Shown here: in pieces, positions 8,840-59,042 of the stretch
Position numbering within the stretch: position 1 is the first letter of the stretch
Layout of the letters: each line of letters begins with the position of its first letter
IMG/VR virus record: IMGVR_UViG_3300044878_000087
Location: 66,432-130,431 of that record
DNA length: 64,000 bases
Reading direction: 5' to 3' (one strand)
Origin: a virus
Taxonomy: Duplodnaviria > Heunggongvirae > Uroviricota > Caudoviricetes
Made by a program: the position numbers and the translations under genes
Notes under the pieces: generated by a model
Databases searched by the model: none
What the model was told of the DNA's origin: nothing
Seen by the model: the letters and a program-made list of their open reading frames with translations, nothing else

Positions 8840-10756
8840 TTAGTACATCAGACCAGTTGCACCGCCTACCGATGGAGCGTAGACGTTTTGGTTCGTCATG
8901 TAGGAAGTTACGTTCGCTACACCTTGAACGTTCATGCCAGCCAGAGCCATGTTGCCTTGGAAGCGCTGACCACCGAATACGGAGCCAACGTTGTCCATGG
9001 TGACTGCGATACCAGCTTTCAGCTGAGCAGCATCCATAGCAGCAACCAGTTTCGGGTTGATGATGGCACGAGTTACACGACCAGCGCTGGTAACGTTACC
9101 CAGGTATTGCTTGTCGTACTGCTCGGACTTCTTCAGACGAACTTCTGGGTGGACGTTCGGGTTGCACTTGGCAGCGTACCAGTCCATGAACTCAGCAACA
9201 ACACCATCGCACGCGTTCAGAGCGTACAGGGTGTCGAGATCACGACGGTCACGACGTTCACCGTTTTCATCTGGGTAGTAACCCAGCTGGAAGTCGGTAC
9301 CGTATGGACGGAACAGCCACTCGTTGGCAACGTCGAACACGGAGGTGAAGTTATCACGACCGTACAGGTTGCACAGGATGCGGATCAGGCCAGCTTTAGC
9401 AGCTTGCTCGTTTGCACCACCCATCGAGTCGATGATCATGGTTTCGATGAACGAGTTATCGCCCATGCGGTCCAGGTCGATCATGATCACTGGGTTCTGC
9501 TGTACTTGGGAGTACATCAGACCAGCGAAGTCTTGCTCGGTGAAGGTATCGGACTTGGTTTCGACTTTGATGCCAGCTGCAGTCAGGTAACCAACAGCAC
9601 CGATGTCACGTGGGTCTTTGATGCGACCGATGGTTGGCAGGAACTGTTTAGCCCAGCCTTGACCGTTGGTTGCACGGAAAGCGTTACCCAGCGAGAAGAA
9701 GTACATCTCAGGAGTGTTCGCCATGATCCAGCCAGCTTGCTTGACCGCGGTTACGACCAGAGCAGGCATGAATGGAGCAGGTACTGGACCTTGTGGCACG
9801 CCGTAGACTTGTGGTACTTGCTGAGGCGAGTATTCCAGGTCGGTGAACATTGCTACCGAGTTCAGCTGAGAGTCAGCATCGTAGTACTCGTTCTCTTGAA
9901 CGTTCTGACCGTTGTTCTTCTTGCGGCGCTGCAGGGTGACGACGATGTCGGCACGCTGAGGGATACCAGTGTTCGATTCCATCGGAGTACCGGTGTAATC
10001 GATAGTGGCAGCCAGGATCTCGTCGGAAGACTGCAGGTCGGTAGCCAGGGAGAACGGACGCTCATCGCTCAGACGAGCCATGGTATCTTCAACCGAGTTG
10101 ACTGCTTTGATCAGCAGGTTGCGCACAACCAGCTTATCTTCGAAATCGAATTCAGCGTGGATCGCTTGTGGACCAGCGTTGTATACGTCGGCACCTGGGT
10201 GACCAGTTACTTGACGAACGTGAGCAACGATACGGGACCAGTACAGCGGGGTGAAGATGTCGCTAGCGTCTGGCTTGGTTTCGAACTTGTCGAAGGTGCT
10301 GAAGCCGTTAGCGATCTGGAAGGTCTTCGGCTTGACGTTGACCGAGTTGTCGACGATCGGCAGAGCTTTAACCAGGATGGCTGGCTTGCCACGGTTGTCA
10401 ACCAGTTTCAGAACCAGGATCGATGCCATCGCTACTTGGTGAGCGGTACGGTCGAAGCGGAACAGGTGGAAACCATCGGACAGATCTTGCTGTTCGATTG
10501 CTTCTTTCTGAGCATCCTGGAATGCAACGAAAGCTTTGGTAGTACGAGCGTCGTTACCATCGGCACGACCGGAACGGGAGAAGCGGGTGTTCAGAGTGCT
10601 GATACCGCCGGAAACTGGGAGAGCTGCTTGTGCTGTCATTTGCTGTGGTGCCTGAGGTTGTTGGGTTGCAGGTGCTACGAATGGGGTTTGGTTTACCGCT
10701 GGTGCAACTTGAATTTGTTGTGCTGCGGATGCTTGTTCTTGCTTGTTAACTGCCAT
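8840..10756 (-). CDS. chmA: chimallin, major phage nuclear shell protein
   Basis: 638 aa from MAVNK (upstream AAAGGA). Q/A-rich N-terminus and segments FRFDRTAHQV, RADIVVTLQR, NTPEMYFFSLGNAFR, RDRRDLD, GQRFQGN match the 201phi2-1 gp105 sequence as I recall it. Confidence 0.95.
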   Translation of the reverse strand: MAVNKQEQASAAQQIQVAPAVNQTPFVAPATQQPQAPQQMTAQAALPVSGGISTLNTRFSRSGRADGNDARTTKAFVAFQDAQKEAIEQQDLSDGFHLFRFDRTAHQVAMASILVLKLVDNRGKPAILVKALPIVDNSVNVKPKTFQIANGFSTFDKFETKPDASDIFTPLYWSRIVAHVRQVTGHPGADVYNAGPQAIHAEFDFEDKLVVRNLLIKAVNSVEDTMARLSDERPFSLATDLQSSDEILAATIDYTGTPMESNTGIPQRADIVVTLQRRKKNNGQNVQENEYYDADSQLNSVAMFTDLEYSPQQVPQVYGVPQGPVPAPFMPALVVTAVKQAGWIMANTPEMYFFSLGNAFRATNGQGWAKQFLPTIGRIKDPRDIGAVGYLTAAGIKVETKSDTFTEQDFAGLMYSQVQQNPVIMIDLDRMGDNSFIETMIIDSMGGANEQAAKAGLIRILCNLYGRDNFTSVFDVANEWLFRPYGTDFQLGYYPDENGERRDRRDLDTLYALNACDGVVAEFMDWYAAKCNPNVHPEVRLKKSEQYDKQYLGNVTSAGRVTRAIINPKLVAAMDAAQLKAGIAVTMDNVGSVFGGQRFQGNMALAGMNVQGVANVTSYMTNQNVYAPSVGGATGLMY

Positions 10757-10830
10757 GCTGCTGTTCCTTTTACGAATTCGCTTTTCTTGATCAAGAAAGG
10801 ACATTCCATATGCTGGAGAGTGTCCTAGTA

Positions 10831-54912: not shown

Positions 54913-54941
54913 GGCTTCCTTTCGAGGAAGCCTTTATGTCG
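54913..54941 (+). terminator. terminator after nrdB
   Basis: GGCTTCCT TTCG AGGAAGCC TTTATGTCG. Confidence 0.8.
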
Positions 54942-54985: not shown

Positions 54986-57601
54986 ATGAACGTTTATGAG
55001 TGGATGAGTACACAAGATGTACAGGGTCCTCCGATGCAAGACGAAGACCCACGAGAGAACCCCGCTAATCGTCCACATCTTCCAGAAGAGAGTGACGATA
55101 ATGAGATGCACTGCACTGAACGCAGCATCCAAGATCCGCAGATGATGGAAGACATGACATGTTCAAATGAATCGATCATTGAAGACGTCCGTAAGTTCTT
55201 CAAGATGCATAATCGGGGTAGTGACTTTATTGAAGTCGATGGCAACAATAAAGCCAACGGCGTACAGTTGATGCAGACACTGGATAAAACATTCGGTGAC
55301 AAAGCATGGCTAGATAAACAAACCCATGTAGAAGGCAAGATCAAAGTCGGTGATTTGGCTGATCGAATCAATCTCGATAAGATCGAACAGACCATTGCTG
55401 AAACTGGCGCAATCAATGCCCAGTTCCAAAATGCTCAGGTGCAGGCAATCCTCACTAACATTAAATTGTTAAAACCGATTCTGGATAAGATTAATCCGAC
55501 TAAGCTTACAGATGACGGCTATGATACATTAAAAGCTTTGCTCCCAGATATTAAGCCAATCACAGAAATCATCAAAACGCCAGTACGTAGTAAAACGAAT
55601 CTGCTGTCGGGCAAGACTACTGATGAAGCACGTGAAACCCTGAAGGTAGATGAAGTCGAAGGCATTGCCCAAGCGATCAACAAGGCACTCAAAGAGGCAC
55701 AGGCGATCTGGGAAGATAGTGGAACTACTATTGACCAATTGATTCCTACGTATATTGAAATTCGCCAGAACATCAATGACGGTGCACAGAGCCAAGGCTA
55801 CAACAATGATGCCTGGAACGAATTGTTTGCCATGGTACATCGTAAGATCTTTGGTGCTGGTTCTCCAGATGTGATCGCAGCTTATCGCCAATTTGAAGGT
55901 GCATGTATCGCTGCTGTGATTTATATGGAGCGTTCGTTCAAAGGTGGTAAGGGTGTATCAATGGAAGAGTTCAAAGTTTCCATTGAAGGGATCTTCGACA
56001 AAATCATCGGTATGTTCAAGAAGAAGAAAGAGGGGGATAAAGAACCCATCAAACCTCCGATGAATATCGACCATGTGCAGGAACTGAAACGATTCGTTGA
56101 ATCTGGTGCTACCACACTACCAGCAACTACCACCACCGGCATGGAAAGTTCATTCTTGGTTGGTTTGGATAAATCCGCTAACCAGTGGGCTGCAGCTGTC
56201 CGTGCAGATCTGAAGAACTATCGCCAACTCATTCAGCAAGCTATTACCTACGACAAGAAAATTGATGCGTGGGAAAAGAAGTATGCCGATGAACTAGATT
56301 CGTACTGTGGTAATGATGATCGCCCAGAAGAGTTTGCTGCTCTTCTAAAACGGGTTGCCGATTCCCAACCGAAGCCTTGGTCAGAAGTAATGAACAAGTC
56401 GCAGTCATTCATTGCGTTTGGCCCCGATGATTGGATGGACGATGAAGGTAGCTTTGAATCAATGCCGCATCCAGACATGGTTAAAGGTCAACTGGATATC
56501 CCAGAGATGAATGAGCCAGCAGTTAAGCTCATCAAAGAAGTGCTGAAGGAAATTGTACAGTTCGTTGATTTTGCAGAAGACCTGTACTATGACCTGCCGT
56601 ATCATGGCGCTGACTTTACTGATGCTCCATATCGCGGTTATACTCGTGATGATGACTGTAACGAACAAATGAGTCGTTTCCGGATTCATGCTTACGTTAG
56701 CAACAATCCAGCTGATATGGCTCACCACATCAGTAAGCGCGTGTTCCATCTGTTGATGAACATTACTTCGTTTGTTGTGCGTGCTGAGGGCGGGTCTGTT
56801 TCTAACGAAGGTTTCATTGATGCCTTGAAAGGTCTGTTCAAGTCTAAGCCTAAAGATGTCGAGATTAAAGGCGACATTGATAACTCAGTGCTCAAGCAAT
56901 TGCAAGAAACTGTACTGAATGATAACTGGCTAAAACAACAAACGCTCAAGGAAGGCAATGTATCCGTACGCTTCCCTGATGCTGTACAGAATGGTAACTA
57001 CAAGCCTGTGCTGCAACGTGTCAAACAGGAACTGGAAACTACCGCTAAGTACAACGCTGGTAAAGCCAACGCCTGGTTGAACCCTATCAAGCAAGCAATG
57101 GATGTAATCATTGAAGGTCGTGTAAGTGGCATCAGTCTGGAACAAGCTGAAGCACTACGTGAACTTGCTGACTACGATAGCCTAGACTTCGACGTCGATT
57201 ATAAAGAACCTAATAACTTCTTGAGTGACGATGCTGAAGTAGAAGTTCCTGCACTGGATGAAGCGGGCATCAAAGGCGCAGTCAATGCTATCATCGAACT
57301 GGTTAAGGCTCGTGAGCTGTACACCAATGTTTCGACGGGTGATATCCCTGGTGGTATCCCACACACCAGCATGCACAAGATCCGTGAAGTAAGTGATGAA
57401 GCAACTCGTGATGTCCTGTTGGATCTCCATGAGGAAATCAGCAGCATTACTGATTACGCTATCGAGAGCTTCTATCAGAATCAGTCTGCTTACTTTGACC
57501 TGTTCGAAGCCTTGGCTAAACCGCTGATGGATTGGATTCAGAAATCTATCTCTGGCATCAAGTACAGCAATGAGGCTTTTGCTGATGTGGGAAAGCTCTG
57601 A
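54986..57601 (+). CDS. multi-domain internal head-type protein with repeated S-x-E processing sites (short form, 871 aa)
   Basis: Start MNVYEW (upstream AAGGA); acidic propeptide; SNE/SME/SIE/SNE/SNE sites, most followed by an xFxDxxKxxF helix. S/A/G-x-E is the known phiKZ prohead protease specificity. Confidence 0.8.
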   Translation: MNVYEWMSTQDVQGPPMQDEDPRENPANRPHLPEESDDNEMHCTERSIQDPQMMEDMTCSNESIIEDVRKFFKMHNRGSDFIEVDGNNKANGVQLMQTLDKTFGDKAWLDKQTHVEGKIKVGDLADRINLDKIEQTIAETGAINAQFQNAQVQAILTNIKLLKPILDKINPTKLTDDGYDTLKALLPDIKPITEIIKTPVRSKTNLLSGKTTDEARETLKVDEVEGIAQAINKALKEAQAIWEDSGTTIDQLIPTYIEIRQNINDGAQSQGYNNDAWNELFAMVHRKIFGAGSPDVIAAYRQFEGACIAAVIYMERSFKGGKGVSMEEFKVSIEGIFDKIIGMFKKKKEGDKEPIKPPMNIDHVQELKRFVESGATTLPATTTTGMESSFLVGLDKSANQWAAAVRADLKNYRQLIQQAITYDKKIDAWEKKYADELDSYCGNDDRPEEFAALLKRVADSQPKPWSEVMNKSQSFIAFGPDDWMDDEGSFESMPHPDMVKGQLDIPEMNEPAVKLIKEVLKEIVQFVDFAEDLYYDLPYHGADFTDAPYRGYTRDDDCNEQMSRFRIHAYVSNNPADMAHHISKRVFHLLMNITSFVVRAEGGSVSNEGFIDALKGLFKSKPKDVEIKGDIDNSVLKQLQETVLNDNWLKQQTLKEGNVSVRFPDAVQNGNYKPVLQRVKQELETTAKYNAGKANAWLNPIKQAMDVIIEGRVSGISLEQAEALRELADYDSLDFDVDYKEPNNFLSDDAEVEVPALDEAGIKGAVNAIIELVKARELYTNVSTGDIPGGIPHTSMHKIREVSDEATRDVLLDLHEEISSITDYAIESFYQNQSAYFDLFEALAKPLMDWIQKSISGIKYSNEAFADVGKL
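57589..57595 (+). promoter_or_regulatory. -1 ribosomal frameshift slippery site G_GGA_AAG
   Basis: X_XXY_YYZ heptamer in the correct phase, one codon before the TGA; the -1 frame opens one codon earlier and runs to 58338. Confidence 0.75.
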
Positions 57602-58338
57602 GTGGTCTCTTTCGCGCAAAGGAAACTGATCCTACTGTCGTAGGTGATCACAACTATCAGAATGCTAAAAGGCTTGTGCAACAAACGTTCTTCAATGATA
57701 GCTGGTTAGCCGAACACACGTTCACTGGCAAACCTGTTACGGTATCCTTTCCAGGCAACCTAACGAAGTTCGATAGTACAATCATTGACACGATCCGTCA
57801 AGACGCTCAACCCCATTCACATAAAGCAGGGGAATACTTGAAAGAAGGCTTTAAGCCAGTCAATGAAGTAATCCATTACCTGTACCAACGTGGATGGACC
57901 AGTGATCCTAAGCGAGCTGAAACGTATTTGAAGACCGTGGACTTTAAGTTCAACTTAACTGCGGAACATATTCAAATCGCTAAGCCTTCTGAAGAACACG
58001 AACTCCCAGCTCTAGATGCTAGGTCTATTAAAGAGGTCGCTAAGATCTTCTTGGACTTGGTAGAACTGAAACGGGAACTGTGGGACGTGCATCTGCTCCG
58101 TATCTGGAAGACCTTTGGAGTTGAAGGACGTAACTACAGTCAGGGTGGCAAGCGGTATCGTGAGGCAGATGCTACCAATGCTCCGCACGCAGTATATCGC
58201 TTATTCGAAGAGCTGCATGACTACGGCAATAAGTTCGAAGAGTTCTTATACGAATTCAACTCGTCCTATACCGAGATCACCGTACCGACAGCCGACGGGT
58301 TACTGAAGTGGATGAATCGATCGATCATCAAGAAATAA
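57589..58338 (+). CDS. fourth homologous domain of the head-type protein, reached in the -1 frame
   Basis: GKALSGLFRAKETDPTVVGDHNYQNAKRLVQQTFFNDSWLAEH...LLKWMNRSI aligns by eye with domains 1 and 3; the ORF track starts it only at GTG 57676. Confidence 0.75.
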   Translation, partial: GKALSGLFRAKETDPTVVGDHNYQNAKRLVQQTFFNDSWLAEHTFTGKPVTVSFPGNLTKFDSTIIDTIRQDAQPHSHKAGEYLKEGFKPVNEVIHYLYQRGWTSDPKRAETYLKTVDFKFNLTAEHIQIAKPSEEHELPALDARSIKEVAKIFLDLVELKRELWDVHLLRIWKTFGVEGRNYSQGGKRYREADATNAPHAVYRLFEELHDYGNKFEEFLYEFNSSYTEITVPTADGLLKWMNRSIIKK

Positions 58339-58517: not shown

Positions 58518-59042
58518 ATGAGTACGTTTACTCGCTTTACAGCAAAAGAACAACTGACATTCGATGCGGAAGCTAGCCGAATCCTAGGCAAGAAGTATTA
58601 TCGCGTTGTTCCAGGATTCCGTTATTACATCGGAAAAGAGGATTCCGACAAGTACATTGACATCCCTACTGGGTTCCTGACCGACGGTGCCTCAGTACCA
58701 CTCTTGTTCCAATGGCTGATCCCTACACTGGGTGAATACTCCCAAGCCACTACATTGCATGACTACCTCTGTGATCATTATGAAATTACCCAGGTAATCA
58801 ATGGTGTACCTACACAGGTAAAGATCGACCGAGCAGAAGTGGACCGCATCTTCTATGAAGCTATGCGGGTATTGGAAGTCGCTGCTTGGAGACGTAATGT
58901 TATCCAAGTCGGAGTCGATGCTTACCGTTTCTATAAACGACCAACTAAACCGGTCGGCAATCCCCGGAAAACGGAGCTAGAGAATGAACCCAATCGTCAA
59001 AGCGATCGGCCTACCAGTCGTACAACTGCTACAACAGTTTAA
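58518..59042 (+). CDS. DUF1353-like protein
   Basis: IPTGFLTDGASVP...ATTLHDYLC...DRIFYEAM; SD AAGGAG. Confidence 0.8.
   Translation: MSTFTRFTAKEQLTFDAEASRILGKKYYRVVPGFRYYIGKEDSDKYIDIPTGFLTDGASVPLLFQWLIPTLGEYSQATTLHDYLCDHYEITQVINGVPTQVKIDRAEVDRIFYEAMRVLEVAAWRRNVIQVGVDAYRFYKRPTKPVGNPRKTELENEPNRQSDRPTSRTTATTV

Follow-up and report, generated by a model that had tools for sequence, protein, structure and literature searches.

Does a structural gene of a nucleus-forming jumbo phage use a programmed -1 ribosomal frameshift to add a fourth module to part of its product? The question is raised by a locus in a 64,000-nucleotide stretch of tailed-phage DNA (the window), which spans positions 66432-130431 of a virus record that is 310,743 bp long and has direct terminal repeats (IMG/VR record IMGVR_UViG_3300044878_000087; G000:C1 in our coordinates). 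An earlier reading of the window (the sequence-only reading) had proposed that a slippery heptamer at the 3′-end of a long open reading frame (ORF) shifts ribosomes into the -1 frame. Our comparative analysis makes it very probable that this heptamer is a programmed -1 ribosomal frameshift site, located in a modular virion polyprotein gene of a chimallivirus. The sequence signals, their conservation, the selection on the -1 frame and the colinearity of the junction with relatives that encode it in a single frame are all observed directly.

The long ORF ends with AGC AAT GAG GCT TTT GCT GAT GTG GGA AAG CTC TGA. Its zero-frame codons GTG (57587-57589), GGA (57590-57592) and AAG (57593-57595) place the candidate shift site, the slippery heptamer G_GGA_AAG, at 57589-57595 (+) in X_XXY_YYZ phase, followed by CTC and by the zero-frame TGA stop at 57599-57601 (+), two codons past the heptamer. 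The -1 frame contains a TGA stop at 57583-57585 (+), one codon ahead of the heptamer, after which it reads TGT GGG AAA GCT CTG AGT GGT and stays open up to the stop at 58336-58338. Heptamer, phase, upstream stop and open -1 frame all lie exactly where the sequence-only reading had placed them. Across the junction, the predicted -1 product reads ...YSNE-AFADVGK-ALSGLFRAK.... The codons AGC AAT GAG (57566-57574, +) encode S-N-E, the last putative head-protease site, which marks the junction between the modules that we call C and D. The shift point is located 7 residues past this motif, and the unshifted product terminates 8 residues past it, a distance noted previously and borne out by translation.

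The start listed for the long ORF, ATG 54911, is spurious. It lies inside a terminator-like hairpin that follows the ribonucleotide reductase (RNR) beta gene; the hairpin was located by a terminator scan and in the sequence at 54913-54932 (+), between the RNR beta and polyprotein genes, and overlaps this ATG. ATG 54986 carries an AAGGA Shine-Dalgarno sequence, and the same layout and start are kept in the cultured phage D6. The true start is ATG 54986, and the two products are therefore 871 and 1117 amino acids (aa) long, as the sequence-only reading had estimated. According to its translation, the zero-frame polyprotein coding sequence (CDS; 54986-57601, +; 871 aa) comprises an acidic propeptide, modules A, B and C, an 8-residue tail and the TGA stop. 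The -1 frame coding region of module D (57595-58338, +; 247 aa plus stop) is predicted to be read only after a shift, which would give the 1117-aa trans-frame product.

Conservation and selection across the frame junction

Seven lineages, which are independent isolates or assemblies, were compared: the window, the cultured phage D6, three IMG/VR lineages, and two Logan assemblies. Compared with phages by megablast, the locus gave a single match of 95 nt, and the relatives were traced by protein-level and pattern searches. The heptamer is identical and in phase in all seven lineages, recurring together with the zero-frame stop two codons on in D6, L003/4/5, L006/L012, L007, L011, and L013. The position of this stop is invariant, whether it is TGA or TAA. 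A -1 frame stop is found 1-2 codons ahead of the heptamer in five of the seven lineages; L007 and L013 are without one, their -1 frames being open 23 codons and at least 22 codons before the heptamer, respectively. Past the heptamer, the -1 frame is open for 247-252 codons across the lineages, and an [S/A/G]-N-E motif is found at the C/D junction in all relatives. Alignment with relatives was a check set beforehand, and it found the heptamer, its phase and both frames to be conserved. A second GGGAAAG is present in L006 (4035-4041), 31 nt past the first; its phase does not fit the -1 (module D) frame, and it falls inside the predicted hairpin described below.

The module D sequences of these lineages are 62-82% identical to that of the window, and their pairwise synonymous divergence (dS) is at least 1.8 or saturated. 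Among the 117 invariant degenerate residues of module D, just 12 use the same codon in six lineages (1 of 11 for Gly and 1 of 9 for Lys). With so few invariant codons and saturated dS, the invariant G plus GGA AAG is not explained by descent alone. The register of substitutions also switches at the heptamer: changes are synonymous in frame 0 before it and synonymous in frame -1 after it, the latter exemplified by GCT>GCG, CTG>TTA, TTT>TTC, and CGC>CGT between the window and D6. Over the first 28 codons past the heptamer, nonsynonymous divergence (dN) between the window and D6 is 0.03 and dS is 1.65, while all pairs give dN of 0.03-0.23 and dS of 0.36-1.9 (saturated in one pair). For the whole of module D, omega (dN/dS) is 0.04-0.15. 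Purifying selection in the -1 frame is thus strong on the codons directly past the heptamer.

Three relatives, L008, L010, and P0010, encode module D in one continuous frame, without the heptamer and with a different local sequence. The -1 junction product of the frameshifted lineages is gaplessly colinear with in-frame L008, L010, and P0010, as exemplified by L010 SNE-DFSDLGEKLGGFFRHR, which aligns without gaps with the L007 trans-frame sequence SNE-DFGSLGK/ALSGLFRGK. In a maximum-likelihood tree of module D with C modules as the outgroup, the in-frame D modules form one clade (support 98/95) that is sister to frameshifted L007/L013 and nested among frameshifted forms; the node joining the in-frame clade has a support of 86/86. 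On the simplest reading, the frameshift came first and was later resolved into the in-frame fusion. Because L008 and L010 are without the heptamer and are phylogenetically derived, they back the frameshift reading rather than refute it. The natural occurrence of frameshifted and in-frame versions of one junction within a clade also provides a comparative system for the gain and loss of frameshift signals.

Of the alternatives to a frameshift, the one that survives best, although it is highly unlikely, is that module D is a separate gene with independent initiation in the -1 frame (from GTG 57676 here and from other codons elsewhere) and that the heptamer is incidental. A separate CDS is indeed called by ORF finders and in the D6 annotation; in the window, ORF finders take the GTG at 57676-57678 (+), which has a weak AAGG 5 nt ahead of it, as the start of a separate 220-aa gene. 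However, the first possible start differs per lineage, with the first ATG, GTG or TTG of the -1 frame occurring at codon offset 29, 39, 28, 49, 34 or 11 in six lineages (the annotated GTG of D6 is 49 codons in). No start codon or Shine-Dalgarno sequence is conserved in the -1 frame across the compared lineages, and a scan of the locus found no promoter or terminator between the two frames. Protein-level conservation extends over the 27 codons ahead of GTG 57676, where dN is far below dS, and these codons align with the in-frame L008/L010 junction. Independent initiation would remove ~30 conserved residues, including the first predicted helix of module D (residues 22-31), and would leave unexplained the invariant heptamer, the invariant stop position, and a depletion of GGGAAAG that we describe below. 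The GTG is probably unused, and its role as the only source of module D, an alternative raised in the sequence-only reading, is ruled out: the codon is unconserved, and purifying selection in the -1 frame acts on the 28 codons ahead of it. In current annotation pipelines, as for D6, the gene comes out as a "hypothetical protein" plus a truncated ORF behind it, which hides both the true product and the logic of the polyprotein.

Candidate stimulators and slippery-site usage

A 50-nt stem-loop is predicted at 57602-57651 (+), 6 nt past the heptamer, with the closing stem GUGGUC/GAUCAC (GUGGUC/GAYCAC across the lineages folded). Its folding free energy (dG) is -14.9 kcal/mol in the window (z-score -2.2) and -16.3 to -24.2 kcal/mol in four frameshifting relatives, the z-scores ranging from -2.2 to -5.5 over these five frameshifting lineages. 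The same segment is weaker in the in-frame relatives (-12.8 kcal/mol in L008; -9.0 kcal/mol in L010, z-score -0.1). Invariant codons are enriched in codons 2-24 past the heptamer, where they account for 5/14 as against 7/103 elsewhere (Fisher P=0.006), and the invariant AGT GGT and CAC AAC correspond to the two arms of the closing stem. L010 has GGA and CAT at the stem-arm positions, and its stem is lost. The hairpin is probable, and it is a candidate frameshift stimulator. A Shine-Dalgarno-like GAGG (57572-57575), 13 nt upstream of the heptamer, is found in most lineages; it coincides with the Glu codon of S-N-E and is inseparable from constraint on the protein, and any stimulatory role for it is putative.

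The slipperiness of A_AAG is governed by the tRNA-Lys repertoire of the host. On both strands of the window, GGGAAAG is observed once, against 6.0 +/- 2.3 expected. It occurs 6 times on both strands of the 310.7-kb genome, where GGGAAAC, GGGAAAT, and GGGAAAA occur 32, 35, and 21 times, respectively. For in-phase X_XXA_AAG heptamers, a genome-wide count on a crude gene set gives 7, where codon frequencies predict ~34. Such depletion would be expected if A_AAG-type heptamers were truly slippery on the host's ribosomes. At no other in-phase X_XXA_AAG site in the genome does a long ORF end where a long -1 ORF continues without a start of its own. Two T_TTA_AAG sites with a long -1 ORF downstream were considered and rejected: the one at G000:C1:199269 (-) belongs to an ordinary gene pair with an ATGA stop/start overlap, and the one at G000:C1:284186 (-) lies within a spurious ORF opposite a long real gene. 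In the ORFs of the genome, A_AAA_AAG is also rare (1 observed, 14 expected), as is C_CCA_AAG (3 observed, 11 expected), which suggests a general selection against A_AAG slippery sites in the host of this phage.

An extremely unlikely alternative is that the change occurs at the RNA level, with the phage or host RNA polymerase stuttering on GGGAAA and adding one nucleotide in some transcripts, whose translation would then be conventional. Such transcriptional slippage would lead into the same downstream frame, and comparative data cannot separate it from the ribosomal route; these phages also use their own RNA polymerases. However, known slippage sites are longer homopolymer runs (PMC5009743, and general knowledge) than the G3 and A3 found here, and a stuttering polymerase would not need the X_XXY_YYZ phase, the 6-nt spacer to a hairpin or the adjacent zero-frame stop, all of which are hallmarks of a ribosomal shift. 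Scarcely credible is a split caused by an indel from sequencing or assembly, or by a mutation that recently disabled the gene, the locus then being a pseudogene or in reality one continuous ORF: although L008, L010, and P0010 do carry module D in one continuous frame, these relatives differ locally, are without the heptamer and form a derived clade, G3A3 is no error-prone homopolymer, module D is under strong purifying selection with saturated dS, and the concordance of seven independent assemblies, from a cultured phage and from metagenomes, in their frame structure at the same nucleotide rules out the simple indel that the sequence-only reading had left to be checked.

Module architecture and phage setting

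The products were cut at their conserved [S/A/G]-x-E motifs, almost all of which are [S/A/G]-N-E, and the pieces were compared by all-against-all blastp. They fall into four module classes of ~255-275 aa each, with module D being the -1 frame part. Modules C and D share ~25% identity over ~250 aa (blastp E <1e-3), in agreement with the earlier observation that the fourth domain parallels the third. Self-blastp of the full product detected no internal repeats; the paralogy is visible with separated modules only, and only between C and D. The order propeptide-A-B-C-frameshift-D is found in the window, D6, and L013, propeptide-A-C-frameshift-D in L003, L006, and L007, and propeptide-A-frameshift-D in L011. 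P0009 is probably a further lineage with A-C-frameshift-D. L008, L010, and P0010 have propeptide-A-D in one frame without a heptamer, and Psa21, P0012, P0015, and P0017 have propeptide-A-C without module D. Distant relatives carry up to four modules in one frame, as in the 1182-aa P0019, and also other orders, such as C-A-B in P0016.

Modules A, B, C, and D have been gained, lost and reordered between close relatives (L003-L014, P0010-P0022). Module identities form a mosaic: L008 shares 72% identity with the window in module A, yet its D module is 85% identical to that of L007. These patterns suggest that recombination is frequent where modules meet. The C/D profile also had a weak match (E 0.003) within module A of Psa21 gp426 (L002; MK552327, 300739-301197), a hint of very distant paralogy between module A and modules C and D.

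The window encodes, at 8840-10804 (-), a homologue of chimallin, the protein of the phage-nucleus shell (phrog_4795, E 3e-145), and the phage is therefore placed among the nucleus-forming jumbo phages. A tail sheath protein and a large terminase are also encoded. Among cultured phages, the nearest relatives are D6 and Psa21, two jumbo phages of Pseudomonas syringae. We assign the phage to the D6/Psa21 group of the chimalliviruses, which makes it phiKZ-like in the broad sense. Outside the window, the gene at G000:C1:237392-238201 (+) codes for a protein homologous to gp175, the head maturation protease of phiKZ (L016; 62% identity, E 3e-103). PF03420, the family of the T4 gp21 protease, had no match in this genome or in the control genomes and is thus uninformative. 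In phiKZ, gp175, whose known specificity is [S/A/G]-x-E, cuts at S-x-E sites (PMC5694885), and its homologues likewise process head proteins at motifs of the S-x-E type (PMC5694885, PMC10052503). [S/A/G]-N-E is present at almost every module junction of the relatives, the exceptions being S-M-E/S-I-E at the A/B junction of the window and S-Q-E at the propeptide/A junction of L008. The C-terminal end of the Psa21 protein is exactly S-N-E. Because a gp175 homologue, an acidic propeptide and [S/A/G]-N-E at nearly every junction occur together, processing into separate modules is the most likely fate of the precursors.

Module C is linked by PHROGs to phrog_24656, a "virion structural protein". 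The AlphaFold model of module D, built from 11 sequences, has a mean pLDDT (predicted local distance difference test) of 80.8 and comprises mostly long helices. When compared with viral predicted structures by Foldseek, this predicted fold matched a "virion structural protein" of phages Noxifer and Psa21 (E 4e-7), with weaker matches to PhiPA3, PA7, PS119XW, and the Erwinia jumbo phages Desertfox and Deimos-Minion. The description of the product as a phiKZ-like head protein in the sequence-only reading is apt only if taken loosely: it refers to a chimallivirus whose genome encodes a gp175 homologue, and the predicted fold matches those of proteins that carry a virion structural annotation in other chimalliviruses, but the product has no sequence homologue in phiKZ and no match to PF12699.

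The polyprotein gene is adjoined upstream by the RNR alpha and beta genes and downstream by a DUF1353/phrog_1158 gene. The latter, located at 58518-59042 (+), matches phrog_1158, "tail assembly chaperone" (E 1e-40), and its homologues in related contigs carry Pfam DUF1353. The chaperone label looks doubtful because the gene contains no frameshift of the G/GT type.

Predicted mechanism and known systems

If the heptamer works as predicted, most ribosomes would read GTG GGA AAG CTC TGA and stop, giving the 871-aa precursor propeptide-A-B-C. A fraction would slip back by one base, with the tRNA-Gly and tRNA-Lys on GGA AAG re-pairing on GGG AAA while the ribosome is probably paused by the hairpin 6 nt downstream. 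The slipped ribosomes would bypass the zero-frame stop and add 247 codons of the -1 frame, giving the 1117-aa precursor that includes module D. A gp175-type protease would then cut both precursors at [S/A/G]-x-E. As the zero-frame product ends 8 residues past the last S-N-E, both precursors would release identical A, B, and C, with D coming only from the shifted one. The frequency of frameshifting would fix the D:(A,B,C) ratio and would tie the delivery of D to the same N-terminal targeting region. That ribosomes shift, how often they do so, that the junctions are cut and that the products are packaged into the head are all inferences. Support for the recoding is good, and that for its proposed biological role is only moderate. 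If the frameshift does set the dose of D, silent mutations in the heptamer or an in-frame fusion would be a genetic handle on the roles and stoichiometry of head or ejected proteins.

As a tentative extension of this mechanism, the chimalliviruses of this clade may be Gag/Gag-Pol-like, in that an ancient and conserved -1 shift would meter the capsid load of protease-released D relative to its sister modules. The frameshift cassette would have moved with module D by module shuffling, as in A-frameshift-D, A-C-frameshift-D, and A-B-C-frameshift-D, and would have been resolved in-frame at least once.

Several points count against a programmed frameshift in a processed head polyprotein, or against parts of that interpretation. 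The closing stem of the hairpin never varies and thus offers no covariation, part of the hairpin forms also in in-frame L008, and the stem arms fall on conserved residues, so that protein constraint could account for some of the conservation. The D modules of L007 and L013 are 98% identical and represent one lineage for D. The long form could be the major product. No Pfam family matches the modules at E up to 1, whether PF12699 (the inner-body family of phiKZ) or the chaperone families, and they have no relative in the PDB by sequence or by fold (Foldseek); phiKZ yielded no homologue when searched with a profile of modules C and D. Cleavage at S-x-E and a location in the head are themselves putative. 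The papers on D6 and Psa21 mention neither frameshifting nor proteomics of the polyprotein gene.

Among known systems, the inner-head (ejection) proteins of phiKZ, 201phi2-1, and SPN3US are comparable in their N-terminal acidic propeptide, S-x-E type motifs and gp175-type protease, of which this phage has a homologue with 62% identity (PMC5694885). In their predicted folds, the helical modules described here also match "virion structural proteins" of Noxifer, Psa21, PhiPA3, and PA7. Unlike the inner-head proteins, they match neither PF12699 nor any other Pfam family and have no sequence homologue in phiKZ, and several modules are fused in one gene instead of being encoded by separate paralogous genes. 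The literature searched contained no description of frameshifting for these inner-head proteins, and, with subscription journals outside our coverage, none was found for jumbo or phiKZ-like phages more generally, including for such a polyprotein setting.

The frameshift of the lambda G/GT tail-assembly chaperone, reportedly described by Levin et al. in 1993, is said to be conserved across tailed phages. Its heptamer is the identical G_GGA_AAG, with Gly-Lys decoded in both frames and a zero-frame stop just downstream (PMC3296357, PMC5009743). The lambda site is ~4% efficient without a strong structure (PMC3296357), and G_GGA_AAG is highly shift-prone in Escherichia coli, in which A_AAG-type heptamers are known to be slippery (PMC5009743). 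In both cases, one phage morphogenesis gene gives a short major product and a C-terminally extended minor product, although here this is a prediction. Unlike in lambda, the gene is located between ribonucleotide reductase and a DUF1353 gene and not between the major tail and tape-measure genes, its product has no similarity to gpG or gpT, and the extension is a paralogous and probably protease-released module, not a chaperone binding domain. A sizeable downstream hairpin is also predicted here, unlike in lambda, and this could raise the shift rate above that of lambda.

The T7/T3 gene 10A/10B and E. coli dnaX (tau/gamma) systems are likewise bacterial-type programmed -1 frameshifts that generate two products with different C-termini. 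At the dnaX site, an X_XXA_AAG-class heptamer is followed after ~6 nt by a hairpin and preceded by a Shine-Dalgarno-like stimulator (PMC5009743, and general knowledge), to which the GAGG 13 nt upstream would correspond here. The shifted product of dnaX, however, is the shorter one. In T7, 10B carries a short extension that stays on the capsid protein, whereas here a whole 247-aa module follows a cleavage motif.

Frameshifting within a protease-processed polyprotein is otherwise typical of retroviruses and RNA viruses. As in retroviral Gag/Gag-Pol, ribosomes shifting to the -1 frame shortly before the ORF of a structural polyprotein ends would append a further module, the shared N-terminal part would carry both forms into the particle, a viral protease would cut the junction sites, and the shift frequency would set the stoichiometry, with packaging and cleavage being the putative elements here. 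The lineage, host, and heptamer are unrelated to those of retroviruses, and the appended module is a helical paralogue of the preceding one, not an enzyme. The mechanism is canonical and the heptamer is that of lambda; the setting, of which no description was found in the literature searched, is a putatively protease-processed modular virion polyprotein of a nucleus-forming jumbo phage, in which the frameshift cassette would move with one module as domains are shuffled. It would extend programmed frameshifting in tailed phages past tail chaperones and capsid extensions to the type of polyprotein that Gag/Gag-Pol exemplifies.

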